IMG/VR virus record: IMGVR_UViG_3300044530_001484
Location: 1 to 59,525 of that record
Strand: one strand, 5' to 3'
Source of the DNA: a virus
Lineage: Duplodnaviria; Caudoviricetes
Length of the DNA stretch: 59,525 bases
This document shows positions 6,791 through 53,657 of this stretch, piece after piece. A program made the position numbers and the translations under genes. The notes under the pieces are model-generated. The model was not told the origin of the DNA, did not search any database, and saw only the letters and a list, made by a program, of their open reading frames with translations. Positions within the stretch are counted from its first letter, which is position 1. The number at the start of each line of letters is the position of its first letter.

Positions 6791-6997
6791 ATGCTAAAAA
6801 GATTATCAGAGAATGAAATACAATTATGTGGTAAAGGTAATTGCTGCCCTATTATTACAAAGGTAGACGAAGATACATACGAGGTTCTTGACGATTACGG
6901 TAATAAAATTAAAGTGAAGAAGAGCGAGCTGGAGCTCGTAGCAGACGCTGTACGAGCTCTTGATAAGCCGAAAGAGGAAACTTTAATCTGTGGTTGA
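6791..6997 (+). CDS. Hypothetical protein (CxxxxCCP)
   Basis: 68 aa ORF with TAAATA at 6780-6785, 5 nt upstream. Confidence 0.6.
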   Translation: MLKRLSENEIQLCGKGNCCPIITKVDEDTYEVLDDYGNKIKVKKSELELVADAVRALDKPKEETLICG

Positions 6998-7259
6998 TTT
7001 AGTACTACATACTATTTCATGTATCGGGCTATGTTTTATTCTAAAGTATGGCTCAATACTTTCTTATTTTAGAAATAAGCTCATTAAGAATGAGTATTTT
7101 AAAGAACTATTTTCTTGCTCACTCTGCTTAGGGTTTTGGGCAGGTATACTTACCGGTATACTAGGGCATTATAACCCTATCGTATTTGCTACTTATGGAG
7201 CTGCAGTGTGTTGGTATGCAGATCATATTCTAGATCTTATTATTTCGAAGTCTCAATAA
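6990..7259 (+). CDS. Small membrane protein, DUF1360-like
   Basis: Hydrophobic, with LFSCSLCLGFW motif. Confidence 0.5.
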   Translation: MVDLVLHTISCIGLCFILKYGSILSYFRNKLIKNEYFKELFSCSLCLGFWAGILTGILGHYNPIVFATYGAAVCWYADHILDLIISKSQ

Positions 7260-7590
7260 ATTGTAACAATTCGTGTAATTGTTCGCAAGCAAATCCCATC
7301 CCGCGATCTGCTGCATCTTGTAGTAGATCATTTAGTTTTTTCTTGAGTATACCAATAGGTATAATTCTCTCATCTTCTTCCTCAAATCTAGCTGTTGTTT
7401 GGTTCATGGAGTATGCAGTTCCCACATTACCGGGAACCGCTGTAGGTATTAATCCTTTCGTTCCGTAAGAATTTTTAGGTCCCCATACATCTTGTGAACC
7501 AGGTGAATAATTGTTATCAGCATATCGGTTATTTGTTAAATCGATTGCTTCGTATATTAATCCAATCTCATTAAACCCATATTTACTCAT
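7240..7590 (-). CDS. Hypothetical protein, possibly virion-associated
   Basis: 116 aa ORF; minus-strand TAAATA at 7597-7602. Confidence 0.6.
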   Translation of the reverse strand: MSKYGFNEIGLIYEAIDLTNNRYADNNYSPGSQDVWGPKNSYGTKGLIPTAVPGNVGTAYSMNQTTARFEEEDERIIPIGILKKKLNDLLQDAADRGMGFACEQLHELLQFIETSK

Positions 7591-7603
7591 TGTGTATATT
7601 TAG

Positions 7604-7632
7604 TTGATTAACGCTAATAATATAGATATAAT
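7604..7632 (+). promoter_or_regulatory. Sigma70-type promoter
   Basis: TTGATT-N17-TATAAT, 6 nt before ATG 7639. Confidence 0.65.
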
Positions 7633-7638
7633 TATCTT

Positions 7639-8079
7639 ATGCAGAAAAAAACGGTAAGTTATGAAAATATTGCTTTTATGGTAGATCAACTTGCTGAGCG
7701 CGTTAAAACTGATTACGATTATATTATTGGTATAGGTAGAGGTGGGCTCATACCAGCGACGATGTTGGGTTATAAGCTTAATAAGAAAGTATTAACGTTT
7801 GGAGTTAATACATATAATAATCAAGTTCAAGATGATAATTATATTGTATATCAACAGCCTAATTTTATTAAAACTAAATCTAAATATCTCGTTGTAGATG
7901 ATATATGTGATTCAGGAAATACATTTAGTATTTTTAAGAACTTATATAGTTATAATGAGGTTCATACATTTGAATATGCATCTCTTTTTGCTAAAGATAA
8001 ATCTTCACATATGGTTGACTATTACGGTTTTTCGGTTCCAGAAGGAATATGGTTAACGTTTCCGTGGGAGGACTCCTAA
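7639..8079 (+). CDS. Purine phosphoribosyltransferase (Gpt-like)
   Basis: IGRGG, PRPP-binding LVVDDICDSGNT, and C-terminal WLTFPWE. Confidence 0.85.
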   Translation: MQKKTVSYENIAFMVDQLAERVKTDYDYIIGIGRGGLIPATMLGYKLNKKVLTFGVNTYNNQVQDDNYIVYQQPNFIKTKSKYLVVDDICDSGNTFSIFKNLYSYNEVHTFEYASLFAKDKSSHMVDYYGFSVPEGIWLTFPWEDS

Positions 8080-8149
8080 TATACTTTCAATACTCTCTAT
8101 AACTACTTGTATATAAACTTGATACAGTAGTTTATATTTAATTAAAAGG

Positions 8150-8177
8150 TTGATTTACAGTGGAGGTGAGTTACAAT
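8150..8177 (+). promoter_or_regulatory. Sigma70-type promoter
   Basis: TTGATT-N16-TACAAT, 6 nt before ATG 8184. Confidence 0.5.
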
Positions 8178-8183
8178 AAGATT

Positions 8184-8543
8184 ATGTCCAGATCTGTGAC
8201 CTGTATAATTTCAGGTAAATCGTTCAATTTTGCTACAGCTTATTTTGCTAAGCGTGTAGAAGAATATACTGATGTAGAATCATTACAACGGTATTATGTT
8301 ACCAAAAAGGTAAAGTCGTTAATTATAAGAGGTTATAGTGCTCAAGAGATTCGAAACATTCTTAATGTAAACGATGATGACTTAGTAGGTGTTGATTCAC
8401 AAGAGATTAAAGATATTATAGTATATCACAGTCTAAGAAATGAGACAATTTCAAAGAAAAATAGTAGTAATTTTGCTACCCATAAATCTGATTCTGATGT
8501 ATCGGCATTCATAAATAATATAAAGGATTTAAATTATGACTAA
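8184..8543 (+). CDS. Hypothetical protein
   Basis: Track ORF 8160..8543; start moved to ATG 8184 on promoter geometry. Confidence 0.6.
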   Translation: MSRSVTCIISGKSFNFATAYFAKRVEEYTDVESLQRYYVTKKVKSLIIRGYSAQEIRNILNVNDDDLVGVDSQEIKDIIVYHSLRNETISKKNSSNFATHKSDSDVSAFINNIKDLNYD

Positions 8544-8763
8544 GAAATTTATAGCACAAACAGGTAGTAATAACACAATAAGAGTTTATAATGCAGACAC
8601 AGGTGCTCTTCATAGAATTTTTAGTGTAGATGGTAATATTGTGTCGCAGCCTGTAGTAATGGAGAGCGAGATGACTGTTACCGTTCAACAAGGTATTTTT
8701 AAGACAATTAAAATATATAATGTTAATAATGGCAGTCTTAAGAAAAATATTCCAATTCAATAA
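8536..8763 (+). CDS. Hypothetical beta-rich protein
   Basis: 75 aa ORF overlapping the upstream stop. Confidence 0.55.
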   Translation: MTKKFIAQTGSNNTIRVYNADTGALHRIFSVDGNIVSQPVVMESEMTVTVQQGIFKTIKIYNVNNGSLKKNIPIQ

Positions 8764-8798
8764 TAGCTATTTAACATTTTATAATTAAATATCTTACC

Positions 8799-9779
8799 AT
8801 GGGAAAAAGTATTTTTGACGAGCAAGTTAGTCGTAAACCAAATTTGTATCCATGGACTGATCAGTTCATTGAAGCAATGCATAATGGATTTTGGACAGAT
8901 AAAGAGTTTAACTTTAAGTCAGACGTTCAACAATTTAAAGTTGAATTGTCTGATCAAGAAAGAGAAATTGTAATACGTACTTTATCTGCTATCGGGCAGA
9001 TAGAAGTAGCTGTAAAGACGTTCTGGGCTAAGTTGGGTGAGAACCTACCACATCCAGCTTTATACGATCTTGGTATCGTTATGTCTAATACTGAAGTAAT
9101 TCATAACAATGCGTACGAGCGTTTGCTCAAGGTTCTCGAACTTGAAGATATTTTTGAAGAGAACCTTAAACTAGAATGGATACAAGGGAGAGTCAAGTAT
9201 CTTCGTAAGTATACACATAGGTTCTATAAGGACTCAAAGAAGCAATATCTATATGCATTAACATTGTTTACTTTGTTCGTAGAGAATGTTTCTCTGTTTT
9301 CTCAGTTCTATGTTATTAATCACTTTGCTCGATTTAAGAACGTTCTGAAGGATACTGATCAACAGGTTAAGTATACTCGTAATGAAGAGAATATTCACGC
9401 TCTGGTGGGTATTCAAATTATTAATACTATCCGTGAAGAGCACCCTGAACTCTTTGATGAAGAGCTGACAGAGCGTATTGTTACAGCTGCTCATGAAGCG
9501 TTTAAATCTGAAAGCAAGATTGTTGATTGGATGGTTAACGGTATTGATGTACCTGGCTTATCAGCACCTATTCTCAAAGAGTTTATCAAAAATCGTATTA
9601 ATGAATCTCTTATACAGATTGGATTGCCTAAGCCTTTTGAAGTAGATTCTACTATTCTAGAGTCTACAATGTGGTTCGAAGAGGAATTATTGGGCAATAA
9701 TATGACCGATTTTTTTCATAGTAGGCCCGTGGAATACTCTAAGAAGAGTCAATCATTCAGCGAAGACGATTTATTTTAA
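8799..9779 (+). CDS. nrdB: Ribonucleotide reductase beta subunit (class I, class Id signature)
   Basis: Ferritin-like ligands QIEVAVK, EVIHNNAY, VENVSLFSQF, EENIH; C-terminal DFF...VEY. Confidence 0.95.
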   Translation: MGKSIFDEQVSRKPNLYPWTDQFIEAMHNGFWTDKEFNFKSDVQQFKVELSDQEREIVIRTLSAIGQIEVAVKTFWAKLGENLPHPALYDLGIVMSNTEVIHNNAYERLLKVLELEDIFEENLKLEWIQGRVKYLRKYTHRFYKDSKKQYLYALTLFTLFVENVSLFSQFYVINHFARFKNVLKDTDQQVKYTRNEENIHALVGIQIINTIREEHPELFDEELTERIVTAAHEAFKSESKIVDWMVNGIDVPGLSAPILKEFIKNRINESLIQIGLPKPFEVDSTILESTMWFEEELLGNNMTDFFHSRPVEYSKKSQSFSEDDLF

Positions 9780-14268: not shown

Positions 14269-14882
14269 TATATTAGTTTTGTTGTGTTAATTTGACTTGT
14301 AGCTTTATCAACTGAGTTGCTTATTTTACTTGTATAACGTTCTATAACATTACCAGGTTGTGATAACTTTTCCGAAGCTTTACTAACAAGTTTACTTATA
14401 CTAGATGAACCCGCATTAACATCTTTAGCTAGTTTTTTACTTATATCTCCTATCAGTGAACCTGCAACACACTTTAACATTTCCGCTGCAGCAAATCTAC
14501 AATTGTCTTGATCAGCACGAAAATTAATAATATCATTTACTAGCTTCTTAAGATCTTTAATTGTTTGTTCAATAAATTTTATAGTTGCTAATATTGTAGC
14601 TTGTATCTGTAGCAATTGATTTACAACTCCTGATATCTGATTAACAGCATCATTAATTATATCTGTTATCATTCCTGTTAAACCAGCAACGATACTCGAC
14701 ATTACACCGAGAGCTTGATTCTGTAAAGAGCTTAATACCCCTTTTGCTACATTGCCTAGTATACCTGGTAACCCGGTAAGAATAGAGGGTAGACACATAA
14801 CACCTTTTGCAACAGATGTTAACGCACCAACCTTATTATTGACTGCAGAGGCTAATCCTCCTACACTGTTAAATAAAGCCAT
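14268..14882 (-). CDS. Hypothetical helical protein, probably baseplate-associated
   Basis: Coupled to the gp5-like genes; TAAATA at 14894-14899. Confidence 0.55.
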   Translation of the reverse strand: MALFNSVGGLASAVNNKVGALTSVAKGVMCLPSILTGLPGILGNVAKGVLSSLQNQALGVMSSIVAGLTGMITDIINDAVNQISGVVNQLLQIQATILATIKFIEQTIKDLKKLVNDIINFRADQDNCRFAAAEMLKCVAGSLIGDISKKLAKDVNAGSSSISKLVSKASEKLSQPGNVIERYTSKISNSVDKATSQINTTKLI

Positions 14883-14903
14883 ATATTTTAAATTATTTAA
14901 TGC

Positions 14904-14932
14904 TTGAATTCGTTAAGGAACTACATTATAAT
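14904..14932 (+). promoter_or_regulatory. Sigma70-type promoter
   Basis: TTGAAT-N17-TATAAT, 6 nt before ATG 14939. Confidence 0.7.
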
Positions 14933-14938
14933 ATTATT

Positions 14939-15742
14939 ATGTTGGTATCTCATGAGTCTCCTATTTCAATTCTAGATCATTCTAGGCACTATAACGATTA
15001 CGAATATGCTCTCGTGCATTTATTTGAAACACATCCTAAGTATTATAACTTCTTTAAAACGTCTCTTTCACTAGGACGTGAGGTAATGCTCGACAATTCT
15101 ATTTTTGAGCTGGGTACAGCTTTTGATAGTGTTAAATTTGCAGGGTATATTAACGAGCTTAAACCTACATATTATATTGTACCTGATGTATTGGAAGAGA
15201 GTAAAGCTACTATGGAATCTTTTTGGAGCTTTATAACTGAGTATGAGGATCTTCCAGGTCTTAAAGTAGGTGTTGTTCAAGGTAAGACATATGATGAGAT
15301 TATTGCATGTTACGAGTTTATGGTAGGGTATGCTGACTATATTGCAATTTCATTTGATTATTCTTATTATCAGATCATAGGTAGAGCTACAAGTGATAAT
15401 CCTGAACGAGCAAAACTAGAGCGAATGTGTGATGGTCGTCAGAAGCTTATTAATATGTTAATTGCAGATGGTATTTGGGAGCATACAAAGCCTCACCATC
15501 TTTTAGGTTGTTCACTATCGAAAGAGTTTAGTCATTACGCAAATATTAAGAGTATTCGTAGTGTAGATACTTCCAACCCTGTTGTAGCAGGAATCGTTGG
15601 TCAGCGATATCTTAGAGAGATCGGACTATATAATAAACCTAAGGTACTTCTTGCTGATCTTATTGATGCAGAATTAACTGCAGATCAGATGAGCGATGTA
15701 ATTTATAACGTAGAGGAATTTAAAAATATTTGTAACGCATGA
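14939..15742 (+). CDS. TGT-fold protein, putative DpdA-like 7-deazaguanine DNA transglycosylase
   Basis: MLDNSIFE, IVPDVL, VGVVQG, HHLLG and SVDTS parallel TGT motifs; clustered with queF. Start moved from 14900. Confidence 0.6.
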   Translation: MLVSHESPISILDHSRHYNDYEYALVHLFETHPKYYNFFKTSLSLGREVMLDNSIFELGTAFDSVKFAGYINELKPTYYIVPDVLEESKATMESFWSFITEYEDLPGLKVGVVQGKTYDEIIACYEFMVGYADYIAISFDYSYYQIIGRATSDNPERAKLERMCDGRQKLINMLIADGIWEHTKPHHLLGCSLSKEFSHYANIKSIRSVDTSNPVVAGIVGQRYLREIGLYNKPKVLLADLIDAELTADQMSDVIYNVEEFKNICNA

Positions 15743-16296
15743 AAGATATCTCCTGGTTGGTACTCTTTTCACAAACAGGTTCTGAGATTGCTAATATCTC
15801 AGATAAACTAGGCATTAAGCCGAGTAAAATTTTAACTGATAACTCTGATATAACTAGACACGATAAACGGATTACAGAAAGTACATTTTGGTGTGTTAAG
15901 GGTAATACATATGAGCAAAAGTTAGCTTATTACCGTCAACTCTTTGAAGGTTATGATGTTATAACTCTACACGGCTGGCTTAATATTATTCCAAAAGAAA
16001 TTTGTAAGGAGTTTAAAATTTATAATGGTCACCCCGGACTTATTAATTATTATTCAGAGTTAAAAGGAAAAGATCCTCAAGTAAGAGCTTATGATAGAAT
16101 TGGAGAATATTTGTATGTTGGTAGTGTTATCCATGAAGTTACGGAGTATGTTGATTGCGGTCGTATTATTTGTTATGATAAAGTATCTAATGTACATTGT
16201 ACGTCGTTAGATGAGACGTATAAGGTTTTAAAACAAACCTCTCTTAATTCTTGGGTTGATTTCTTTAACAATAAACGTTATAATATTGTATGTTAA
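15739..16296 (+). CDS. PurN-like formyltransferase (putative DpdN-type preQ1 formyltransferase)
   Basis: LFSQTGS, YNGHPGL and GSVIHEV..VDCG are formyltransferase motifs; ATGA overlap with the TGT-like gene. Confidence 0.75.
   Translation: MKDISWLVLFSQTGSEIANISDKLGIKPSKILTDNSDITRHDKRITESTFWCVKGNTYEQKLAYYRQLFEGYDVITLHGWLNIIPKEICKEFKIYNGHPGLINYYSELKGKDPQVRAYDRIGEYLYVGSVIHEVTEYVDCGRIICYDKVSNVHCTSLDETYKVLKQTSLNSWVDFFNNKRYNIVC
16256..16284 (+). promoter_or_regulatory. Sigma70-type promoter
   Basis: TTGATT-N17-TATAAT, 5 nt before ATG 16290. Confidence 0.65.
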
Positions 16297-16883
16297 TTTC
16301 TTTTTCTGGAGCGCAGAGTACAGGTAAGAGCACTCTACTCAAGTTGTGTCAAGATATGATTCCTGAGTGGAATTATATTCCTGAGATTACACGACTTGTG
16401 AAGAGGGAGTATGATCTACCAATTAACGAGGGTGGTAATGATATAACACAAATGATGATTACGGGTGAGCATTTACGAAATGCATATACTAAGCGAGATA
16501 ATCCTACTATTCTTGATAGGTGTTCGTTAGATGGGTTAGTGTATACTCACTGGTTGTGTGATCATGGAAATGTCTCTATGGGTGCTTACAATCATGCTCG
16601 TTGGACATTTGACAATACTATCAACAAGTATGATCTTATTGTATATACCCAGCCTGAAGATGTACCGGTAGATAATGATGGTGAACGAAGTGTCAATGTT
16701 GAATTTAGAAATCAAATAATTGAACTGTTTGAAAGTTATATGGCAAGTATTCCTCCTACCAAACTTCTTCGTGTTACAGGATCGGTTAAAGAACGAATGA
16801 CATTTATGATGCTTCAGTTTGAATTAATGGGATTAAACACAATGTTCAATAGAGACTTGCATCCTTATAAAAATAAACTATAA
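16290..16883 (+). CDS. P-loop nucleotide kinase (NadR/AAA_28/dNMP kinase-like)
   Basis: GAQSTGKST Walker A, LDRCSLD and DGER. Confidence 0.75.
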   Translation: MLISFSGAQSTGKSTLLKLCQDMIPEWNYIPEITRLVKREYDLPINEGGNDITQMMITGEHLRNAYTKRDNPTILDRCSLDGLVYTHWLCDHGNVSMGAYNHARWTFDNTINKYDLIVYTQPEDVPVDNDGERSVNVEFRNQIIELFESYMASIPPTKLLRVTGSVKERMTFMMLQFELMGLNTMFNRDLHPYKNKL

Positions 16884-16884
16884 T
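16857..16884 (+). promoter_or_regulatory. Sigma70-type promoter
   Basis: TTGCAT-N16-TATAAT, 5 nt before ATG 16890. Confidence 0.6.
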
Positions 16885-16889
16885 AATTT

Positions 16890-17840
16890 ATGGCAGCAAA
16901 AAAGAAAAAAACAGAATTAGATAATTCCAGAATTAGTAAGCATCTCGGTCAATCATCAGAGTATAAAAGCTCTTATGATCCTTCTTTGCTAGTTCGCGAA
17001 CCTCGTCAATCAAATAGAACTCATCTCGGTCTTGAAGATGAAGATCTTCCGTTTGTAGGTTATGATACTTGGAATGCCTACGAGGTATCTGGATTAACTA
17101 ATTTTGGCTTACCTGTTGTAGGTATTGCAAAAATTGTATATCCGTGTGCTAGTAAGTATATTGTTGAGTCAAAATCGCATAAGTTGTATTTTAATTCGTT
17201 TAATATGACGAAGCTTGGTGATACTGCGCAAGAAGTTCTCAATGAAATTAGTGCTTGTGTTACAAAAGACTTATCTGAGCTACTTGAGTGTAGTGTTCGT
17301 GTTACTGTTGCAAGTAACGAATATGTATTAAGTGAAAATACGTCTGCATATACTGAATGGAGTCACGATCAGAAGCTTCTACGTCAACGTTCATATATTA
17401 CTCTTGAAGAAGAGTATCCTATTGATAATGTAGAGTTTAGTGTTTATAATGAAACACCTGAGCTGCTTGAAGTGCTAGATTCCGAAGTTCGTGATGTTTA
17501 CTACCATAGTGCTCTTCTTAAATCTAACTGCAGAGTAACCTCACAACCCGACTGGGGTGATGTGTATATTCATATGTCTGGATCTAAGACTGTTGATCCT
17601 ATCTCTCTTCTTAAGTATATTGTATCATTTAGAGATGAGTGTCACTTCCATGAGGAAATTTGTGAGACCATCTACAAGCGCTTACATGATATTGTGCAAC
17701 CTGAAGCGTTAGTGGTACGTTGCTTATATGCTCGCCGCGGTGGTTTGGATATTAATCCTGAACGAGCTTCACATAAGAGTTTACTACATTACACTCTAAG
17801 CGATAGCTCTGTACCTCATATTAAGACTCCAAAGCAGTAA
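16890..17840 (+). CDS. queF: NADPH-dependent 7-cyano-7-deazaguanine reductase (bimodular QueF)
   Basis: WNAYE, VESKSHKLY, KSNCRVTSQPDWG (catalytic Cys), FHEEICE and YARRGG. Confidence 0.93.
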   Translation: MAAKKKKTELDNSRISKHLGQSSEYKSSYDPSLLVREPRQSNRTHLGLEDEDLPFVGYDTWNAYEVSGLTNFGLPVVGIAKIVYPCASKYIVESKSHKLYFNSFNMTKLGDTAQEVLNEISACVTKDLSELLECSVRVTVASNEYVLSENTSAYTEWSHDQKLLRQRSYITLEEEYPIDNVEFSVYNETPELLEVLDSEVRDVYYHSALLKSNCRVTSQPDWGDVYIHMSGSKTVDPISLLKYIVSFRDECHFHEEICETIYKRLHDIVQPEALVVRCLYARRGGLDINPERASHKSLLHYTLSDSSVPHIKTPKQ

Positions 17841-17860
17841 TTCTTAATATATCATATATT

Positions 17861-17891
17861 AAAACCCTACCCTAAAAGGTAGGGTTTTTTT
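17861..17891 (+). terminator. Intrinsic terminator
   Basis: aaaaccctacc-ctaaaa-ggtagggttttttt hairpin with T-run after queF. Confidence 0.85.
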
Positions 17892-17912
17892 GTCTGATGA
17901 ATAAATACTGTT

Positions 17913-18236
17913 ATGGCGGCAGTTCCAACAACTAATAACGGTTCAACATTTTATAATCAGAACGACTGTAGATCGTTTAAACAGTCTATCGGTACAGCAT
18001 TAGTGCAGCTTTCATCTTACCCTTGTTCAGAGGTTATTATTACAAATAAAACAGGTGTTAATGTTACCATATTTGATAATGGGTACAACAATGCACTTAA
18101 CTCAATGCTATTAAGTAATAATGATACGTATACATTTAGAGGTATAACAAATACATCGGTTGTATCAGCTAGTGCAGCATCTACTGGTGATATATACTTT
18201 AGAACACAATACTTTAGTGTCTTACCACAAAGGTAA
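17913..18236 (+). CDS. Hypothetical virion protein
   Basis: Ser/Thr/Asn-rich; TAAATA at 17902-17907. Confidence 0.6.
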   Translation: MAAVPTTNNGSTFYNQNDCRSFKQSIGTALVQLSSYPCSEVIITNKTGVNVTIFDNGYNNALNSMLLSNNDTYTFRGITNTSVVSASAASTGDIYFRTQYFSVLPQR

Positions 18237-18269
18237 TTGCATTAATTAGAGTTTGACTAAATATATTAA

Positions 18270-19760
18270 ATGAGACTGTTTAGCGAAAAGGTAACACCAA
18301 CCTTTACTAGCTCTAACCAGAACATCTTAACTATTAAAGATTTCAATGAAGTCTTTTTTGATGTTTATGAGTTAGAGATAAACGGAAATAAATACATAGC
18401 AGAAAAGGTTTCTGAATATAAAGGAAATCCTGTAGTAAATATTCCTATAGTAATTGAAGGTAAGGAATTAGAAGCTCCGTTTGTAATACAACGAGGCGAT
18501 TTTGAAGTATTGTATAATGCTTCAAATCGGCAAATAGGTGAGAGTACTTCGGCAAGTTTATTTTCTGTAGCTGAAGCTAAAGATAGAGAAGAAGAGCTCG
18601 AGAGTATTATCTTTGAAAAAAAGGAATCTATTTTAGAGGAAATAAAACAAGCTAGACAAGCTGCAACTAAATTTGCAGATGCTATTCAGCAAAGAAATTT
18701 AAGTCGACTAGAAGAACGTGATAATAGAGAACGAGAAGTTTTTGTTGAGTCTACTGAAAGTTTCAAAAAAATTCTCTTAGAAGAATTTTTAAGTATATCA
18801 GAAAATACACGAGATGAATTATTTACATATACACAACAAGAGAATGCAAAAGCGTATGAGTATATTACAGATACTGTTAGTCAGTTAGCAGAAAGGCTCT
18901 CGCTCGAGTTAGATAAAGAAGTTACTCTACAAAATGAAAAGACGGTTAAATTATTTAAGAATAATATTTCGTCCTTAGCTAAGAACATATTAACTGATAA
19001 GTTACTTAAAAAAATTGCTACTAATAACAGTGAGAGTAATAAGGCTTTAGATATTAAGTTTGAGACAGTATCTAAAACCCTTGTAAAGGTCCTCGGTGAT
19101 TATGAAGTTCAGCTAGATGAGAAGATAAAATCAGCTTTAGATAGCTACGAATCACACATCATAACATTAGAGCAGTCTAATATTGAACTCAATGATTCTA
19201 TTATTAAAAGTTCAAATAAAGCTTTAAGCCGTATCGGTAATATTAAAACTCAGTTAGAGGAATCGATAACTAATATATCTTCCGAATTAACAGATAAAAT
19301 TACTTTAGCTGAAGGTAAGATTCGCGACTATTACGATGAACGCATTACCTTAATTGAGACTAGTGTAGTAGATTTTACATCAAAAGATAAAGCTCGAATA
19401 AAAGAGCTTATAGAAGAAAGTAAACAGTCGATACTTAAAGAAGTCAGCGTCATTAAGAATAATGTACCTTCTATAGTAGTTGAAAAGACCTCTGAGCTTA
19501 AGGGAGACGTTGATGTAAAAAAGATTAAGACGGACTTAGAGAAATCTATTTCAAATAGGTTCACCCAAGAGCTCGCTAACGTACGAAGGATTATAGAGTT
19601 ATCGTCAGGTGGAGGCTCTGTAGCTCAACAGTTTGCCAACGGTGGAACCATGAACGGCGATTTAAATGTTACGGGTAATTACTTTATAAATGGTGTTAAT
19701 ATTTTAGAGTCATCTACTAACGACTCTAGTTCAATAATCAAAACTTCAATGTTCATCTAA
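18270..19760 (+). CDS. Long coiled-coil protein with fibre-like C-terminus
   Basis: Glu/Lys/Leu-rich helical body ending GGGSV..GGTMNGDLNVTG; TAAATA at 18258-18263. Confidence 0.55.
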   Translation: MRLFSEKVTPTFTSSNQNILTIKDFNEVFFDVYELEINGNKYIAEKVSEYKGNPVVNIPIVIEGKELEAPFVIQRGDFEVLYNASNRQIGESTSASLFSVAEAKDREEELESIIFEKKESILEEIKQARQAATKFADAIQQRNLSRLEERDNREREVFVESTESFKKILLEEFLSISENTRDELFTYTQQENAKAYEYITDTVSQLAERLSLELDKEVTLQNEKTVKLFKNNISSLAKNILTDKLLKKIATNNSESNKALDIKFETVSKTLVKVLGDYEVQLDEKIKSALDSYESHIITLEQSNIELNDSIIKSSNKALSRIGNIKTQLEESITNISSELTDKITLAEGKIRDYYDERITLIETSVVDFTSKDKARIKELIEESKQSILKEVSVIKNNVPSIVVEKTSELKGDVDVKKIKTDLEKSISNRFTQELANVRRIIELSSGGGSVAQQFANGGTMNGDLNVTGNYFINGVNILESSTNDSSSIIKTSMFI

Positions 19761-20142: not shown

Positions 20143-22347
20143 ATGAGCGCTAGATATGGTAATAAAGTTGGACCGCTGGTGTCCCGAAAAACATCTTTCT
20201 TTAAAAAGAATAGATACGATAGAAATTTAATAAAAAAACCAATAACTAGTTGGACTCGTCCTGTGGATTGGTTGACCATGCCAACCATTACAAGTTCTGA
20301 GCAAAAAATAGCATTATTAATGCCGATTTTTCCACAGGGTTCTAATTTGTTAGCTTTTACAGTGGCTGGAGCGTATACGGTTGATTGGGGAGATGGAACA
20401 AGCGAAAATTTTGGTAGTGGGGACAAAGCGCAACACCCATATGATTATGCTGATCCAGATTTAAATGCTACCGTTACAAGTGATGGGTATAAAATGGCTG
20501 TTGTTGTAATTACTCCAAATGGAGGAAATTTAACATCAGTAAATTTCAATCAATTGTATACACAGACTGGATCTACATTCCCAAATAGCTCTCCGATTTT
20601 AGAAATAATACTTTCTTGTCCAAATTTAACAAGTATCACACTAGGTAATAACACCGCTGTAAATGCTTTTTGTAAAGAATTGATCAATTTTTCTGGAATC
20701 AATATGGGAGAAGTGACTAGTTACCAAAATTTGTTTAACAATTTAGCAAAGTTGTCAAACGTATCATTCGGCATAATCGGAAATGTTACTAACATGGCTA
20801 ACATGTTCACTAATTGTTTCTCTTTGACATCAGTTCCACTTTTTAATACAGCGTCTGTTACTACCATGGCTAACATGTTCACTAATTGTGCCTCTTTGAC
20901 ATCAGTTCCACTTTTTGATACAGCGTCTGTTACTACCATGGCTAACATGTTCACTGGGTGCTCCTCTTTGGTAACAGTTCCACTTTTTAATACAGCGTCT
21001 GTTACTACTATGATTACTATGTTCCAAAATTGTTTCTCTTTGGTAACTGTTCCCCTTTTTAATACACCTATATTGACTAATACAAGTGGCATGTTCCTCA
21101 CTTGTCGCTCTTTGACATCAGTTCCACTTTTTAATACAGCGTCTGTTACTCTCATGAACTCTATGTTCAGTGGTTGTACCTCTTTGGTAACAGTTCCACT
21201 TTTTAATACAGCGTCTGCTACTCTCATGAACTCTATGTTCAGCGGTTGTTCCTCTTTGGTAACGGTTCCGCTTTTTAATACAGCGTCTGTTACTACCATG
21301 GCTAGCATGTTCCTAAATTGTGTGTCTTTGACATCAGTTCCACTTTTTAATACACCAATAGTGAATACTATGAATGCCATGTTCAGCGGTTGTTCCTCTT
21401 TAACAACAGTTCCCCTTTTTAATACAGTGGCTGTTACTATCATGAGCAGCATGTTCATTAATTGTTCCTCTTTGGTATCAGTTCCACTTTTTAATACAGC
21501 AATAGTTACTGCCATGGATGCCATGTTCAACGGTTGTTCCTCTTTGGTGACAGTTCCAGCTTTTAATACACCACTTGTGGCTAATTTTTCTGGAATGTTC
21601 CAAAACTGTTTATCTTTGGTATCAGCTCCGCTATCAGGCAGTTTTATAGCTGGTGCAGGAACTACCACCTTAAAATTTGCAGGTATGTTTTCAGGGTGTG
21701 TATCTCTTACAAGAGCATCATTAAGTGGGGCTGAATACTCAATAGCTTTTACTGGTTGTAAATTAAACAAAGCAGAACTAGAATCCATATTTGATAATCT
21801 TGATACAATTGGAGCAGCATCACAAATAATTACAATAACCTCAAACTGGGGAGCACCAACACCAGTATCATTAACAGGAACCAGCACAGCACGAAGCACC
21901 ACTGTAACAATGGCTAGCACAACTGGTATTGAGGTTGGTATGCAAGTCACAGGTACTAATTCACCTTTAACTACCATAACAAGTATAGGTTTAAATAGCA
22001 CGGATAATCGTGTTGATTTAACCAGTCATGGATTGATCGACGGAGACGAAGTTGTATTTACAACAATATCGGGAACGACTGGAATTACGGACAACATAAT
22101 TTATTATGTCGCTGGAATTATATTACCAAATTCTTTTCAGTTGGCAGCAACGCCTAGTGGGTCGGTATTAACATTAACAGGAAATGGAACTGCAAAATTA
22201 AGACATAGAACAGAAGTAGCATCAATCATCCCAAACACAAGTGTTACTATGACTAGACCAATGGCAGGAACTTCCTCAAGTACCTTAGCCTTTCGACAAT
22301 TGAGAACAGGAACAGCATTATTAAAGGGTTGGGCAGTAACAGGATAA
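20143..22347 (+). CDS. BspA/DUF285-like leucine-rich-repeat fibre, putative receptor-binding protein
   Basis: N-terminal RPVDWL..P and VDWGDG; 11 x 24-aa SLxxVPLFNTxxVxxMxxMFxxC repeats; C-terminal KGWAVTG. Confidence 0.7.
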   Translation: MSARYGNKVGPLVSRKTSFFKKNRYDRNLIKKPITSWTRPVDWLTMPTITSSEQKIALLMPIFPQGSNLLAFTVAGAYTVDWGDGTSENFGSGDKAQHPYDYADPDLNATVTSDGYKMAVVVITPNGGNLTSVNFNQLYTQTGSTFPNSSPILEIILSCPNLTSITLGNNTAVNAFCKELINFSGINMGEVTSYQNLFNNLAKLSNVSFGIIGNVTNMANMFTNCFSLTSVPLFNTASVTTMANMFTNCASLTSVPLFDTASVTTMANMFTGCSSLVTVPLFNTASVTTMITMFQNCFSLVTVPLFNTPILTNTSGMFLTCRSLTSVPLFNTASVTLMNSMFSGCTSLVTVPLFNTASATLMNSMFSGCSSLVTVPLFNTASVTTMASMFLNCVSLTSVPLFNTPIVNTMNAMFSGCSSLTTVPLFNTVAVTIMSSMFINCSSLVSVPLFNTAIVTAMDAMFNGCSSLVTVPAFNTPLVANFSGMFQNCLSLVSAPLSGSFIAGAGTTTLKFAGMFSGCVSLTRASLSGAEYSIAFTGCKLNKAELESIFDNLDTIGAASQIITITSNWGAPTPVSLTGTSTARSTTVTMASTTGIEVGMQVTGTNSPLTTITSIGLNSTDNRVDLTSHGLIDGDEVVFTTISGTTGITDNIIYYVAGIILPNSFQLAATPSGSVLTLTGNGTAKLRHRTEVASIIPNTSVTMTRPMAGTSSSTLAFRQLRTGTALLKGWAVTG
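20783..21630 (+). repeat. 72-bp coding tandem repeat, about 11-12 degenerate copies
   Basis: ttgacatcagttccactttt at 20824 and 20896 (72 nt period), continuing to about 21630; end points approximate. Confidence 0.9.
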
Positions 22348-40777: not shown

Positions 40778-41545
40778 CTACATCCACGAGCAATCCCACA
40801 TATGGCAACAGAATGTTTCTTTTTTAATGTATGAAGTATAGTTGTTTCCTTTATTTTTACAAATATTAAAATTAGGGTAAGGGTATAAAAATGAATTAGG
40901 TAGCGCTACTATATTATCGAGATGTATATTTTTAAATAATTTTCTTGTTGTGAGATAAGGTCCTGTTGTGTCAATTACTTCCATAGCATCCCCGCATTTT
41001 ACTTCTTTATCTAAATTTAACATATCCTCTATAATAGGGCTTTTTATACTACACCCTATAATACTATTAAGAACAGTGGGTTCACGGTCGTATGCTATTC
41101 CACAAAAAAAGTCTAAATCTAATAATTCGGTAAAGGGTCGATTGATAATAAAATCTGTATCACAATAAATACCACCAAAATTATATAAAATTTCCAGACG
41201 CAATAAATCTGACTTTTGACCAAAATTAGGAGTTTTTAAAAATTGGTTGTAATTTTTAAATGACGGTAAATTTTGTATTGTATCGTCAGTCCATAAAATA
41301 TAATTCCAATTATCAGGAAGACTTTTTCTTATATTATCACATTGTTGCTTTTGCTTTAACGGTATATTACCACCGAGCCATATTTGATGTATCGTTTTTG
41401 GTATAACTTCCTTCTGCTTTTGTCTTGTTTTTATATTATCATATACCGTTTTAAGACTATCCCATTTATCTTCCAATTCTCGCTCTGTATTATAATAAAC
41501 CGAGTTAGACATTGAAGATTCAAAACTAGGCCAATTATTTTTCAT
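40778..41545 (-). CDS. GT32 (Och1-like, DxD) glycosyltransferase
   Basis: IPKTIHQIWLG, SDLLRLEILYNFGGIYCDTD and TGP. Confidence 0.85.
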   Translation of the reverse strand: MKNNWPSFESSMSNSVYYNTERELEDKWDSLKTVYDNIKTRQKQKEVIPKTIHQIWLGGNIPLKQKQQCDNIRKSLPDNWNYILWTDDTIQNLPSFKNYNQFLKTPNFGQKSDLLRLEILYNFGGIYCDTDFIINRPFTELLDLDFFCGIAYDREPTVLNSIIGCSIKSPIIEDMLNLDKEVKCGDAMEVIDTTGPYLTTRKLFKNIHLDNIVALPNSFLYPYPNFNICKNKGNNYTSYIKKETFCCHMWDCSWM

Positions 41546-47877: not shown

Positions 47878-48528
47878 ATGGCGTGCACAAATGGTACTAA
47901 AACATACGTTAATATAAAAGAGCTTCCGGAAATAAGTGATATTAATAACGGTGACTTTTTAATTGTTGAAACAACTAACGGTACAACTATATTAGATTAT
48001 CAAAATTTCCTCGTAACACTAGATAATACTACATTTGCGGACCAGATCACAACAAATACAACAAATATTGTTACTCTTAGTACAGATTTAGCATCTCTAA
48101 GTAGCTCATCAGCTACTGTATCTCAATTTAATACGCTAAATTCTGCTGTTACAGCTCAATTTAATACCCTAAATTCTGCTGTTACAGCTCTTACATCTAC
48201 AACAGCAACAGATACATATGCTGTATTTAGTTTATCAGGGTATAATAATAATGGTCTCAAACTTTTAAGAGGTTCTAATATTTACTCTCTACAAGTCAAT
48301 CAGGTTTCTCCTAGCTTATCTAGTGTAAAAATAACCTTTAATAATCGCTTCTTAGATAGTAATTATGGATATACTATAAATACACAATTATCTACTATTG
48401 CTGGTCCTGATTCACTTAGTGATATTACTACGGATTATATTAATATCTATATAAAGGATAGATTTTATAATAATAACTCGCTCACTGAGCGTGCTACTAT
48501 TAGAATAGTGGGCGGTCAGACTGCTTGA
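47878..48528 (+). CDS. Fibre-like virion protein
   Basis: VNIKELP..GDFLIVE N-terminus, short coiled coil, beta-rich C-terminus; TAAATA at 47867-47872. Confidence 0.55.
   Translation: MACTNGTKTYVNIKELPEISDINNGDFLIVETTNGTTILDYQNFLVTLDNTTFADQITTNTTNIVTLSTDLASLSSSSATVSQFNTLNSAVTAQFNTLNSAVTALTSTTATDTYAVFSLSGYNNNGLKLLRGSNIYSLQVNQVSPSLSSVKITFNNRFLDSNYGYTINTQLSTIAGPDSLSDITTDYINIYIKDRFYNNNSLTERATIRIVGGQTA
48122..48187 (+). repeat. 33-bp tandem duplication (2 copies, 1 mismatch)
   Basis: ctcaatttaatac(g/c)ctaaattctgctgttacag twice, encoding QFNTLNSAVTA twice. Confidence 0.9.
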
Positions 48529-49258
48529 CCGGTATACTAAATTTCTTAAACAGCTCCTTTTCTTTTTCTTCAGCTTCAAGAGCTGCTTTTTGCTGTTTAA
48601 CGAGTGTTTCTAGTTCAGAGAGATTATCAGAATTAAAGATAGAATGTTCATCACCATATAATTCGCCAGTAGGTGTGAGATAATCCGAGATCGTATCAAT
48701 ACGCTTTTGCGGGCTTGTAGGTAGTACAATAATACCCGGAGAATCATCTTTAGGGTAGAAAATATCTGCATCATAGTTTTGACGATATTGAATATATAGC
48801 GCATCAAATATTTCATCAATTTCTTTTATATATGTTTCATCAGTTTCACGAAGACTATCATCAACGATTTTAATAGCTGGATCATACTTTAGAAGTAAAA
48901 TAAGGTCTAAGTGTCTCATTGACTCTCTAGTAAGCTTGATTGCTTTATCTACATATTCTTTAGTAAAGCCTTCAACCTCATGATCATGAGCCCAGAGAGT
49001 ATACGCAAGATTATCAAGTGGGCACCTATCAAATACAATGTTAGAGTTAGCGTCGGTAGACTGTAATTGATCTAACATAAAGTTAAGAATATCCCACTGT
49101 GTATCAATTGATGTACCGGATGAGTGAGGTAAATTCTTTTCTTTAATAAGATCTCTATAGGTCTTAGAGGGTGTTTTGTAGTTAGGCCAAACAGCCAATA
49201 TATTATCAACAAGTGTGGACTTACCGGTGTTAGCTGTACCTGAAACTGCGATTCTCAT
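48500..49258 (-). CDS. P-loop nucleotide kinase (NadR/AAA_28-like)
   Basis: GTANTGKST and FDRCPLD; same motif layout as 16290..16883. Confidence 0.75.
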   Translation of the reverse strand: MRIAVSGTANTGKSTLVDNILAVWPNYKTPSKTYRDLIKEKNLPHSSGTSIDTQWDILNFMLDQLQSTDANSNIVFDRCPLDNLAYTLWAHDHEVEGFTKEYVDKAIKLTRESMRHLDLILLLKYDPAIKIVDDSLRETDETYIKEIDEIFDALYIQYRQNYDADIFYPKDDSPGIIVLPTSPQKRIDTISDYLTPTGELYGDEHSIFNSDNLSELETLVKQQKAALEAEEKEKELFKKFSIPVKQSDRPLF

Positions 49259-49276: not shown

Positions 49277-49879
49277 TTACATATTTTTCAAGAACGAAGC
49301 CCATTCATCCTTGTAAATATCAAAAGATAACCCCCTATTTGGGTTATAAGGCTTATATTTAAGCTTTAACCCAGCTTGTTCGGGGGTAAGAGATGCTTTT
49401 CGTGAATTGGTTAACCGACAACAGCAAACCATATTTTCCCATGTATCAGTACCGCCTCTGCTTTTAGGTATAATATGGTCAACACTAAGATCGTCTTTAG
49501 AAAGTTTTTTACCTGTGTATACACATGTAAAATTATCGCGTTTAAGAATATTTTGTTTGGTAGGAAATGATACACGATTATATACGATTTTATCATATCG
49601 AGCACATACTACCACGGATGGAATACGAATAGGTCCACGGGCTGTTTGAATATATTCGTCAAACGGTCTTATAGGTAGTTCTAACCATTCTTTTACACTC
49701 GGGATAGGTACAAAGTAATCTATAACCTCCTGATTAATTTTATTTTCATCTGTAGTTTCATAACTAATATCAAGCGGAATTACAGATTTTGAAAATATAT
49801 TACCAAAGGTTCTTTCAATATCTTCCACGGCAATAGGGAAGTAGTATTTATTAAGAACTAATATCTTAGCCTTCATCAA
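49277..49879 (-). CDS. HNH endonuclease (McrA-like)
   Basis: LVLN, PSVV, RDNFTCVY, DHIIPKSRGG..WENMV..N..K. Confidence 0.85.
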   Translation of the reverse strand: MMKAKILVLNKYYFPIAVEDIERTFGNIFSKSVIPLDISYETTDENKINQEVIDYFVPIPSVKEWLELPIRPFDEYIQTARGPIRIPSVVVCARYDKIVYNRVSFPTKQNILKRDNFTCVYTGKKLSKDDLSVDHIIPKSRGGTDTWENMVCCCRLTNSRKASLTPEQAGLKLKYKPYNPNRGLSFDIYKDEWASFLKNM

Positions 49880-50634
49880 ACACGTAGAGCTAAATTCCAG
49901 AGTACAAGATGAAGTCTCGGACTAAAATTAACGCACATAGCTTTAGCATATTCAGCTACAGTTGCAGCTTTCTCTTGATGTTCTTCACGAGATCCACAGC
50001 AAGGCATAAACCAAATACGACTTAGAGGTACATTAATACCGTTCAGATCATCAACATACTTACACCAAATTTCATCGATATCTTCTGAGCGACTAATAAC
50101 AAACTTAAAGCCTGAGCCGTTTTCTTTATGCCACTTAAGTACATCAGGCTTATACGTTTTTTCTTCTGGATCTCCGTTTGTAGTTAGTTTAGGTGAAGTG
50201 GTAAATGTAGCTTTAAACTCTTCCTTCCATCTAAGATCAGGCATAAGAGTAGCATTAGTTTCAAAATCAATACGAGGTAAAAACTCATACTTCTCAACAA
50301 ATGCTCTTACAAGCTTAAGTAATTGCTTTTGCTGAATCATAGGTTCTCCACCTGTAAGCTTCCAAATAGCACCTTTAGAGAGCTTATCCACGTAGAACTC
50401 CCTTTCCATTAAGTTAAAGATTTCGTTAAAAGACATCTTATTCTTGACTGACCAAGATATAAATGAATCACATCCATTTGGTGAATCTTCCGAGGCAAAT
50501 CCGATACAGGTAAGATTACACATAGACATTCTCATAAAGACAGACGGTTGACCAATATACTCACCTTCTCCCTCAATCGTGAAAAAAACTAAATCATCTG
50601 ATAAAAATAATGTTTCTGTATCGCAATCAATCAT
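49876..50634 (-). CDS. queE: 7-carboxy-7-deazaguanine synthase (radical SAM)
   Basis: FFTIEGEG..G.PSVFMR..CNLTC...CDS, LTGGEP, ETN, TSPK and PRLH; start moved from 50661. Confidence 0.88.
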   Translation of the reverse strand: MIDCDTETLFLSDDLVFFTIEGEGEYIGQPSVFMRMSMCNLTCIGFASEDSPNGCDSFISWSVKNKMSFNEIFNLMEREFYVDKLSKGAIWKLTGGEPMIQQKQLLKLVRAFVEKYEFLPRIDFETNATLMPDLRWKEEFKATFTTSPKLTTNGDPEEKTYKPDVLKWHKENGSGFKFVISRSEDIDEIWCKYVDDLNGINVPLSRIWFMPCCGSREEHQEKAATVAEYAKAMCVNFSPRLHLVLWNLALRV

Positions 50635-50640
50635 ATTAAT

Positions 50641-50668
50641 ATTATGGTATAACAGTTCCATATTTCAA
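50641..50668 (-). promoter_or_regulatory. Sigma70-type promoter
   Basis: TTGAAA-N16-CATAAT, 6 nt before ATG 50634. Confidence 0.5.
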
Positions 50669-50692: not shown

Positions 50693-51442
50693 ATGACCCG
50701 TAAAGTGGCGCGAAAGCGCAAGCCTGCTGGTTTGGAGGAAATTTCAGATATTGAAGCTTCTTTTCAAAAAAACTGGATACTTGATTTTAAAATTAAGAAA
50801 CCTTTCCACTTCAACACTAATCATCAACAGTTCTTTAATAGTATAAAGCACGATGATACAAATATGGCTTTTGTAGCTGGACCGGCAGGGTCTGCTAAGT
50901 CATATATTGCTGTATTAGCAGGACTTGAATTACTCAAGGAGAAGAAAATAACAAGTATTATATACATTAGGTCTGTTATTGAATCGGCATCACGTAGCAT
51001 TGGAGCTCTACCGGGAGAGATAGATGACAAGTTCTCACCGTACGCTATGCCTCTTATTGAAAAAATAACAGAAATTACAGATGCTAGTACGTGTAATAAC
51101 CTTAAAACAAATGAGATTATTCGCGCTGTACCTGTTAACTTTGTTAGAGGTCTCACATTTAACGATGCTTTAGTTATTGTTGACGAATCACAAAATTTAT
51201 CTTTGAGCGAACTTATAACAATTCTAACACGCTTTGGTAAAAATACAAAGTATGTTATTTGTGGAGATTTAAATCAGAGTGATATTGGTAAACTGTCCGG
51301 CTTTAAAGAAGTATATGATCGCTTTAATACAGACGAATGCGTGGATCATAAAATCCACGCATTCGAATTTGGAGAATCAGAAATCGTTAGAAGTAAGATT
51401 CTCAAGTTTATCGTTAAGGTACTAGAAGCTAAGCAGCGTTAA
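50693..51442 (+). CDS. phoH: PhoH-family ATPase
   Basis: GPAGSAKS, RGLTF, VDESQN, LTRFG and GDLNQSD. Confidence 0.9.
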   Translation: MTRKVARKRKPAGLEEISDIEASFQKNWILDFKIKKPFHFNTNHQQFFNSIKHDDTNMAFVAGPAGSAKSYIAVLAGLELLKEKKITSIIYIRSVIESASRSIGALPGEIDDKFSPYAMPLIEKITEITDASTCNNLKTNEIIRAVPVNFVRGLTFNDALVIVDESQNLSLSELITILTRFGKNTKYVICGDLNQSDIGKLSGFKEVYDRFNTDECVDHKIHAFEFGESEIVRSKILKFIVKVLEAKQR

Positions 51443-52080
51443 GCACCCCATGATGTACCTGCAAAGGGGTTACTCATTCCTTGTGAAACTCCATTACCAA
51501 CAGCAGCTCCTCTATTTGGAGCGGGCTGCTGTTGAGTCACTGTCTCAACGGGTGTCGTTGCAACTGGTTGAATTTCCGCTTCCGTGTTAAAACTATATGT
51601 TGTCTTGATTGTTTCTTGTTCTACAGCACTATTAGCCTCTGTATATACAGCAGAATTATCCTCATGTTCAAAGACTTCAACCTTATCAACCCAGCACCGA
51701 CCGTCAGTAAGACTACGTACATGTTTGTCTGCAAGTTCAAATACAGTCTCAGCTGCGCGTTCAATGCCTACACCCTTATCCATAATACGAAGCTGAATAA
51801 GTCCACGACTATCAAGATCTTTGAAAATATCTAGTGATGGATCATCTGCTGCAATGGTAGTAGTATGATCAAAAAGATTATTAAGTGTAGCCTTAAGCTC
51901 TTTTAATCCTCCAAAATCAACTGCCCACCCCTTATCATCTAAGGATGAACAACTAAACCATAGTTTAGCTTTTAGCTGATATCCATGAATAAAACGACAA
52001 TGTGAATGGGATGCACGCCATTGTCTAAATGCACAGGAGCCGAGCTCCATTACTTTTGTTGACTGAAAAACAGGTTTCAT
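51439..52080 (-). CDS. queD: 6-carboxytetrahydropterin synthase
   Basis: HCRFIHGY, VDFGGLK, FDH and VEVFEH..NSA. Confidence 0.88.
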   Translation of the reverse strand: MKPVFQSTKVMELGSCAFRQWRASHSHCRFIHGYQLKAKLWFSCSSLDDKGWAVDFGGLKELKATLNNLFDHTTTIAADDPSLDIFKDLDSRGLIQLRIMDKGVGIERAAETVFELADKHVRSLTDGRCWVDKVEVFEHEDNSAVYTEANSAVEQETIKTTYSFNTEAEIQPVATTPVETVTQQQPAPNRGAAVGNGVSQGMSNPFAGTSWGA

Positions 52081-52988: not shown

Positions 52989-53657
52989 ATGGATGATTCT
53001 GAAAATACCGAAATTGGAGATATCGTTAAGCTACCATATGCTAACGGTAATGCTCCCCGTACAGAAAGGGAAAAGCAAGCTATTATTAAACGAGCTGCTA
53101 AGGCTTATGAAAAATACATGGATGCTCTTGGATTTGACTGGAGAAATGATCCTAACTCGGATAATACTCCAATGCGAGTCGCTAAGGCTTTCGTTAATGA
53201 TATTGCAACCGGCTGTTATGATAATCAGCCTAATGTCACTGCATTTCCGAATAATGGTTATGACGGTATTGTTGCACAGTGCAATATTCCAGTTAAATCA
53301 CTTTGTTCCCATCATCACTTAGCTTTTTCTGGTGTTGCTCATGTAGCGTATATACCGAGCCCAGAAGGTAAGGTTATCGGTCTTAGTAAGCTTAATCGTA
53401 TTGTGGAGTTTTACGCAAGACGTCCGCAAATTCAGGAGGGGTTGAGTGTGCAGATTCATGACGCAGTTGACGTCGCTTGTGAAGGTAATCTAGGTGTAGC
53501 TGTTGTACTCAAAGCTCAACATACATGCGCTTGTAATCGTGGAGTAAGACATGATGGATGCTTTATGATTACATCTAAGCTGTCAGGTGATTTCCTCGCT
53601 GATGAAAAGACACGTACAGAACTTTATAAGTTCATTGATATGGCTTCCAGAAAGTAA
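52989..53657 (+). CDS. folE: GTP cyclohydrolase I
   Basis: [28 protein letters not shown] and HTCACNRG. Confidence 0.95.

Follow-up and report, generated by a model that had tools for sequence, protein, structure and literature searches.

The window analyzed here is the whole of IMG/VR record IMGVR_UViG_3300044530_001484 (59,525 nucleotides; Caudoviricetes), judged 28% complete, and it carries a cassette of four co-directional + strand genes (14939-17840), overlapping or abutting, predicted to place a modified 7-deazaguanine in viral DNA. In order, the open reading frames (ORFs) encode a DpdA3-type guanine transglycosylase (14939..15742, or from 14900 with an upstream start), a DpdN-type formyltransferase (15739..16296), a P-loop kinase-like protein (16290..16883) and the preQ0 to preQ1 reductase QueF (16890..17840). 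The first two genes overlap by 4 nt (ATGA) and the next two by 7 nt, while a 6-nt gap precedes the last. The cassette ends at an intrinsic-terminator-like hairpin of 11 pairs with a T-run (about 17861-17888, extending to 17895 at most; + strand); terminator-like sites in 14500-18300 numbered three, against 1.2 expected. A promoter-like site from a consensus scan only (TTGAAT-17 nt-TATAAT, 14904..14932, + strand) lies directly 5′ of the start at 14939 and is weak by itself, with 22 such sites observed in the region against 18.5 expected. The start at 14939 is preferred to that at 14900, as the homologue from the Flavobacterium phage vB_FspM_immuto (hereafter immuto) and phrog_19058 each begin to align at residue 13-14 of the longer ORF. 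A preliminary description of this DNA had placed the start at 14939 and had reported four packed genes closed by a terminator, encoding a protein with the tRNA-guanine transglycosylase (TGT) fold, a formyltransferase, a P-loop kinase and QueF; the layout and all four gene calls were borne out, the latter by Pfam domains and, for the first gene, by Foldseek.

The first gene encodes a protein of 267 amino acids whose assignment draws on homology, on a match to phrog_19058 (7.9e-58), and on AlphaFold2 and Foldseek. Among named DpdA3 proteins it is closest to that of immuto (47% identity, 1e-81), followed by those of CP220 (44%, 7e-53) and phiST (27%, 1e-7). Because sequence-only searches (phmmer against PDB, Pfam, NCBIfam) were uninformative, a fold search was required; phmmer did return FMN enzymes from PDB, but only at chance level. 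Relatives at E up to 0.001 among 1.84 billion representatives amounted to 1477 proteins, and an alignment of the window protein with 95 of the 150 relatives listed (96 sequences) was the input to AlphaFold2. The resulting model (mean predicted local distance difference test score, pLDDT, 98; predicted template modeling score, pTM, 0.93) is a minimal TGT barrel, and all 48 of the 48 PDB matches listed by Foldseek are TGTs (E about 1e-7, probability 1.00, query TM-score 0.54-0.68), the outcome expected from the structure search against TGT/DpdA families that the preliminary description had proposed.

The CxCxxC...H motif forms the zinc-binding subdomain of TGTs, and CxCxxC was not found in the sequence of this protein. 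Judged by its sequence, with neither a Pfam match nor CxCxxC, the protein is not classed as a canonical TGT (PF01702). Three aspartates, D52, D83 and D210, are invariant across the 96-sequence alignment, and the D210 motif aligns with the SID stretch of 7ui4, a bacterial DpdA that was the best match of the family profile against PDB (over the HLLG...SID stretch, E 0.2). In the bacterial DpdA paper, Asp95 and Asp256 are named as catalytic, in a numbering that may be offset from that of the 7ui4 chain (PMC10164549). DpdA3 is acidic (isoelectric point 5.04) and is predicted to exchange guanine for a 7-deazaguanine in DNA.

The second gene product (185 aa) contains the Formyl_trans_N domain (PF00551; 32.8 bits, cut-off 26.1) and shares 42% identity with the DpdN of immuto (3e-41), whose four records are its only matches among 50,697 GenBank phage records. 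Asn-x-His and Asp motifs, which we take to be the PurN catalytic triad, are kept in its alignment to VioF and PurU. The PurN equivalog model (TIGR00639) scored 36.1 bits, far under the cut-off of 150.1, and with the GenBank phage relatives confined to immuto, the idea that the enzyme is a plain purN complement is unsupported. Furthermore, two natural DpdA3-DpdN fusions (P0025 and P0037, 447 aa each, with a DpdN-like domain) tie the exchange and formylation steps together. No fusion of DpdA3 to the kinase was seen among the 13 long or two-stretch representatives checked. Other DpdA3 fusions in this set join the transglycosylase to DUF3310 (P0092, 344 aa) and to a NUMOD3 homing-endonuclease motif (P0031, 475 aa).

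QueF, encoded by the fourth gene, is bimodular (316 aa; QueF_N 117.3 bits, QueF 75 bits), aligns over its full length to Vibrio cholerae QueF 3bp1 (1.1e-49) with the ESKSxKLY motif and the Cys stretch SNCxxTxQPDWG conserved, and is 48% identical to the QueF of immuto. Further members of the preQ1 pathway lie elsewhere in the window: FolE, or GTP cyclohydrolase I (52989..53657, +; PF01227, 152.6 bits; 51% to immuto FolE), QueD of the PTPS family (51439..52080, -; PF01242, 55.6 bits; 41% to immuto QueD) and a QueE-like radical SAM enzyme (49876..50661, -; phrog_2076, 2.1e-39; five QueE NCBIfam models match, all below their cut-offs). A possible pathway helper is a purine (xanthine/guanine-type) phosphoribosyltransferase (PRTase; 7639..8079, +; PF00156, 33.7 bits), for which the best NCBIfam model, xanthine PRTase, reached 2.8e-22, below its cut-off. 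QueC was found in four of five related records searched, among them G001 (the closest relative, 50% complete, with a DpdA3 96% identical to that of the window) and the three that reach a completeness of 96% or more (184.5, 203.8 and 209.3 kb). Judged by these relatives, the phage is probably about 200 kb in size and self-sufficient for preQ1. Between QueD and FolE, a 280-aa ORF (52097-52939, -) has no match in Pfam, NCBIfam or PHROGs, and its position suggests a role in the pathway. Directly after FolE, 53679-54245 (+) encodes a protein similar to phrog_624, 'DNA binding protein' (6.3e-33), with a weak match (E 0.0023) to the pyrimidine-dimer DNA glycosylase family.

The only GenBank phages with DNA similarity to the window are the four immuto records. 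In immuto, measurements gave 345,000 formylated dPreQ1 (fdPreQ1) per 10^6 nucleotides with no remaining dG peak; all G is replaced (Hutinet et al., 2023; PMC10516641). Its transglycosylase was assigned to a new subfamily, DpdA3, and complete G replacement was reported in all three DpdA3 phages tested; the same paper defines its group 1 by the co-encoding of DpdN with DpdA and the FolE-to-QueF pathway (PMC10516641). By gene content and homology, the cassette is a member of this published DpdA3/DpdN/QueF system rather than a new kind, and it very likely represents the DNA-insertion and tailoring end of the phage 7-deazaguanine pathway. The formyl-preQ1 product put forward in the preliminary description agrees with orthology to the immuto cluster and is thereby supported. 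Its 'divergent DpdA' falls in an already named subfamily and the whole cassette is published, so neither is new.

The kinase-like protein (197 aa) belongs to AAA_28 (PF13521; 2.6e-13, 50.9 bits, cut-off 27), carries the Walker A motif GAQSTGKST at residues 7-15, matches phrog_2107, 'thymidylate kinase' (1.4e-18), and is 39% identical to its immuto homologue. Foldseek placed its model (pLDDT 89) nearest to deoxynucleoside kinases (2jat, 1j90, deoxycytidine kinase), thymidylate kinases and the kinase domain of NadR, with E values of 5e-7 to 7e-6. The family profile matched PDB weakly, with E values of 0.0037 for thymidylate kinase, 0.028 for NadR and 0.83 for guanylate kinase. No NCBIfam model matches the protein, the Pfam dNK model scored 15.7, below its cut-off of 27, and Protein Atlas returned viral AAA_28 clusters only, without a functional lead. 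Homologues are labeled 'thymidylate kinase' in the annotation of immuto and CP220 and 'nicotinamide riboside kinase' in one source. The model thus points to a small-molecule nucleoside or nucleotide kinase, classed just as AAA_28 and with candidate substrates only; any single role proposed for it is at best tentative.

To place the kinase in context, 86 loci were compared: 12 found with the window protein and 80 with the family alignment (the best 80 of at least 566 confirmed stretches), 8 of them overlapping, together with immuto and CP220. Four loci with less than 1300 nt after DpdA3 were set aside, leaving 82 evaluable loci. In 73 of the 82, DpdA3 is followed on the same strand by a kinase homologue no more than 4 kb downstream, a count that weighs less than it seems, many loci being near-copies rather than independent events, and the linkage spans kinase identities from 28% to 96%. 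DpdA3-kinase-QueF is the commonest arrangement (44 loci), followed by DpdA3-DpdN-kinase-QueF (18 loci, plus one with an added QueE match and one cut by the contig end), DpdA3-GNAT-kinase-QueF (four), DpdA3-DpdN-PF18909-kinase-QueF (two), DpdA3-kinase...PRTase (two) and the DpdA3-kinase pair of CP220 (one). Nine loci have DpdA3 without a nearby match, and in all five of five such records searched whole, the kinase and an adjacent QueF were found elsewhere in the record. From the coordinates of G011, that pair lies about 7 kb from DpdA3. Seven of these loci (L016, L020, L033, L034, L059, L068, L074) have a gene of about 675-685 aa directly after DpdA3 (about 6960-9030, - strand), the product of which has a hydrophobic N-terminus.

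In GenBank phages, the kinase is matched only in immuto (four records) and Campylobacter phages (17 records). CP220 encodes DpdA3 at 54675-55451 and the kinase directly after it at 55493-56035, downstream of an HD-plus-AAA_33 fusion, and neither QueF nor DpdN has a match in its 18.8-kb locus. Because CP220 keeps the pair in a locus without a QueF match, the kinase tracks DpdA3 and not QueF. The kinase is the most constant neighbor of DpdA3. The preliminary description had held that the kinase has no role in the known pathway, which fits the main text of PMC10516641, where the word 'kinase' occurs 0 times; a merely incidental presence does not fit its constancy beside DpdA3.

The position between DpdA3 and the kinase varies. 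It is empty in 44 loci, holds DpdN in 22, and in four holds a GNAT acetyltransferase of about 181-193 aa in place of DpdN (L012:6801-7346; L008:6798-7349; L010:6801-7382; L077:6803-7255). Three of these were recognized by Acetyltransf_1 (28.5 bits in L012, 22.9 in L008 and 24.1 in L010; cut-off 20.7), and that of L077 was assigned by tblastn. No Formyl_trans_N gene was found in the four GNAT-slot records, one of which is a complete 184.5-kb genome, nor anywhere in the slot-less G004 (209 kb, complete; locus L075); the same search found DpdN in the window, G001 and G003. The GNAT slot predicts an N-acetyl-dPreQ1 base in the DNA of these phages, of which no description was found in the literature searched, and the slot-less phages (the 44 loci, for example L017, L035 and L075) presumably carry plain dPreQ1.

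On the DpdA3 tree, the distribution of the formyl type takes 8 changes, at least 2 of them imposed by branches with good support, and the window falls within a four-row formyl clade. This is a quick tree in which the long branches of L014, L001, L013, L078 and L077 are insecure, and its sole use here is the suggestion that the acyl slot is spread over more than one DpdA3 clade. The slot is thus labile and the kinase constant. Between DpdA3 and DpdN, L003 carries an inserted gene for a GIY-YIG homing endonuclease (6842-7648), and L004 has the corresponding gap; both loci are closely related to the window, with DpdA3 94% identical.

In the proposed mechanism, FolE, QueD and QueE of the window, with QueC supplied by the host or, more probably, by the missing part of the genome, would make preQ0 from GTP, and QueF would reduce it to preQ1 with NADPH. 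DpdA3, a stripped-down TGT barrel, would swap guanine for the deazaguanine base, and DpdN would formylate the aminomethyl group with a formyl-folate donor. The product would be 7-(formylamino)methyl-7-deazaguanine, which would probably occupy every or almost every G position of the virion DNA and would block restriction enzymes. The kinase would be a fifth conserved component, tied to DpdA3, and in the preferred reading its substrate is a purine nucleoside or nucleotide connected with the exchange: it may return released guanine, through the phage PRTase, to GTP for more preQ1 synthesis, or it may phosphorylate a modified deoxynucleotide. The kinase substrate and the site of exchange, DNA or nucleotide, are points that we only infer.

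Several observations weigh against this picture. What the analysis gives for the cassette is folds, domains, orthology and gene order; the chemistry is that of immuto, the predicted base being taken over from the measurement in that phage through homologues that are 39-48% identical. The transglycosylase has no Pfam match at E up to 0.1 and no NCBIfam match, and the alignment to 7ui4 at E 0.2 is the sole sequence-level match of DpdA3 to a solved DpdA. Tests of DpdA3 activity on plasmids in E. coli were unsuccessful, and the function of DpdN in immuto is a prediction only (PMC10516641). QueF scores 257.8 with its NCBIfam equivalog TIGR03138, under the cut-off of 293.45, and QueC was not found in the 28%-complete window. 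Finally, the nearest solved relatives of the kinase span three specificities, making its substrate a guess.

Within the preferred reading of the kinase, a salvage loop is a tentative possibility. DpdA3 acting on DNA would free one guanine with each exchange, the phage PRTase would convert it to GMP, and the kinase would make GDP, and so GTP, which feeds FolE. The purine PRTase of the window has homologues close to DpdA3 in immuto, L029, L031, L032, L080 and L085, the kinase fold resembles that of nucleoside monophosphate kinases, and the loop is consistent with the published post-replicative model (PMC10516641). Such a loop needs no dGTP hydrolase, in line with searches for these enzymes, in which PF18909, PF03819, PF01503, PF01966, PF12643 and PF08761 gave 0 matches in the window and G001-G004 (G002-G004 near-complete), though PF18909 was detected in 0 of 14 control genomes, making its negative weak, and PF08761 in 1. 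Host cells already carry Gmk, which speaks against the loop. Likewise, the kinase has no specific likeness to guanylate kinase (best E 0.83), the linkage of the PRTase to DpdA3 is far looser than that of the kinase, and the PF18909 and HD neighbors found in some lineages are left unexplained.

Those neighbors are better accommodated if the exchange precedes replication, a route that we consider rather doubtful. DpdA3 would then carry out its exchange on a deoxyguanine nucleotide in free form, such as dGMP, the slot enzyme would tailor the product, the kinase would phosphorylate it and the polymerase would incorporate it, which would account for the complete replacement of G. In T4 and S-2L, which have full base replacement, a dNTPase, a dNMP-modifying enzyme and a kinase are combined, and this precedent counts for the route. 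Polymerases are also known to accept 7-deaza-dGTP. In fold, the kinase is like deoxynucleoside and deoxynucleoside monophosphate (dNMP) kinases, and its link to DpdA3 holds in phages that are only very distantly related; hydrolases of deoxynucleoside tri- or monophosphates, of four folds, stand beside DpdA3 in several lineages. One is PF18909, the N-terminal domain of a dATP/dGTP diphosphohydrolase as identified by hmmscan, between DpdN and the kinase (L011:6271-6603, 3.6e-22; L086:4226-4636, 2.4e-20). Immuto has a PRA-PH NTP-pyrophosphatase instead, CP220 an HD-plus-kinase fusion and phiST a MazG-like gene; the DpdA3-DUF3310 fusion P0092 points the same way. Free ADG nucleoside has been reported in CP220-infected cells, which, like complete G replacement in all three DpdA3 phages tested, favors this route (PMC10516641). 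It is also consistent with the acidity of DpdA3, its lack of CxCxxC and of the large insertion of bacterial DpdA (PMC10164549), and its inactivity in the E. coli plasmid test (PMC10516641).

Because no dGTP hydrolase match was obtained in the window or in G001-G004, the pre-replicative route is weakened. In addition, all characterized TGT/DpdA enzymes act on polynucleotides, and the authors of the immuto study favor post-replicative insertion (PMC10516641). The DNA of phiST is fully replaced (PMC10516641), yet no kinase homologue was found by tblastn or is annotated near its DpdA3.

Both of these routes keep the kinase linked to the exchange; two further explanations are less likely than either. 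An unlikely one is that the protein is a housekeeping dNMP/thymidylate kinase, or a NadR-type kinase providing NADPH for QueF, and is unlinked to DpdA3. The annotation labels and the weak PDB matches to thymidylate kinase (0.0037) and NadR (0.028) agree with this, as does a homologue in Campylobacter phage CC_R7 that has topoisomerase II and dUTPase as its neighbors and no DpdA3 anywhere near. It is opposed by the adjacency to DpdA3 at 28-47% kinase identity in Flavobacterium-type, marine and Campylobacter phages, by the failure of every NCBIfam kinase model to match, and by the pair in CP220, whose 18.8-kb locus without a QueF match argues against NADPH support. On the evidence of that CP220-type pair, NAD salvage was rejected as the main role of the kinase. 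Finally, the P-loop protein is very unlikely to be a DpdB-like ATPase partner of DpdA3 on DNA. In favor of such a partner, bacterial DpdA requires DpdB and ATP (PMC10164549), the gene is tightly coupled to DpdA3, and DpdA3 by itself was inactive in E. coli (PMC10516641); against it, the protein has a small-molecule kinase fold, no DNA-binding domain and no likeness to DpdB or ParB in Pfam, PHROGs, NCBIfam or PDB profile searches.

The kinase tied to DpdA3 is a concrete candidate for the factor lacking when the reconstitution of DpdA3 failed, and it makes the choice between pre- and post-replicative exchange directly testable. If true, the pre-replicative route would make DpdA3 the first enzyme of the TGT fold with a mononucleotide as its substrate. 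Through this cassette, the fdPreQ1 DNA system described in 2023 reaches a clade of uncultured phages of roughly 200 kb. Relatives of DpdA3 are encoded in at least 566 IMG/VR stretches, so DNA with full deazaguanine replacement may be common in aquatic phages. In the literature searched, the DpdA3-tied kinase, the modular tailoring slot and the DpdA3-DpdN fusions appear to be new, a statement that for PMC10516641 covers the main text; its Supplementary Data S1 may name GNAT-type phages, the kinase or the PRTase. Such bases matter for the evasion of restriction and CRISPR and as tools for making nuclease-resistant DNA.

Elsewhere in the window, a second AAA_28 kinase of 252 aa with a C-terminal extension is encoded at 48500..49258 (-; PF13521, 2.6e-13). 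Over 93 aa it shares 35% identity with the kinase of the cassette, and both paralogues are present in four of four related records (G001-G004). Its gene adjoins an HNH endonuclease gene and the QueE/QueD/FolE group. The segment 38420-47823 (-) contains ten same-strand ORFs of about 200-310 aa each, of which 41535-42389 and 43902-44825 are paralogues (29% identity) and 46981-47823 has a weak glycosyltransferase-2 match (E 0.0011). At 20143-22347 (+), a 734-aa protein consists of many roughly 22-residue repeats (SLxSVPLFNTxxVTxMxxMFxxC), and the long opposite-strand ORF at 20721-22001 is probably a shadow of this repeat.

Compared with known systems, the DpdA3 of the window shares the TIM-barrel fold of bacterial DpdA (7ui4) and of TGTs, and its alignment to 7ui4 covers the HLLG...SID stretch that holds the proposed nucleophile Asp (PMC10164549). 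It is much smaller: it has 267 aa, where the 7ui4 chain has 436 aa and the TGT chains among the matches listed have 337-392 aa. The large insertion accounts for 30% of bacterial DpdA, and bacterial guanine exchange requires DpdB and ATP (PMC10164549). DpdA3 has no room for such an Ins8-like insertion, lacks the CxCxxC zinc motif of TGTs, and, unlike bacterial DpdA, was seen with no DpdB-like partner gene. The window DpdN resembles PurN and the sugar N-formyltransferases VioF and PseJ in its Formyl_trans_N core and its Asn-x-His and Asp motifs. In contrast to PurN, it is short (185 aa), scores 36.1 against the equivalog cut-off of 150.1 and is always found inside a deazaguanine cassette. CP220 likewise places an AAA_28 kinase directly after its DpdA3, with identities to the window proteins of 28% for the kinase and 44% for DpdA3. 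It differs from the window in having no QueF or DpdN match in its 18.8-kb locus, an HD-plus-AAA_33 fusion upstream, and 2′-deoxy-7-amido-7-deazaguanosine (dADG) as its product, the base carried by CP220-type Campylobacter phages (PMC10516641).

The closest known system is that of immuto, which differs in several respects. The annotated order there is DpdA, a 51-aa ORF, formyltransferase, 'thymidylate kinase' and QueF; the window has no counterpart of the 51-aa ORF between DpdA3 and DpdN. The pathway genes are contiguous in immuto, whereas in the window FolE, QueD and QueE lie about 32-36 kb from the cassette, which is flanked by baseplate-like and other structural genes. No NTP-pyrophosphatase such as the PRA-PH enzyme of immuto was found in the window, nor was QueC. 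Common to both are FolE, QueD, QueE-like and purine PRTase genes and, above all, the same four cassette genes in the same order, with identities of 47%, 42%, 39% and 48%.

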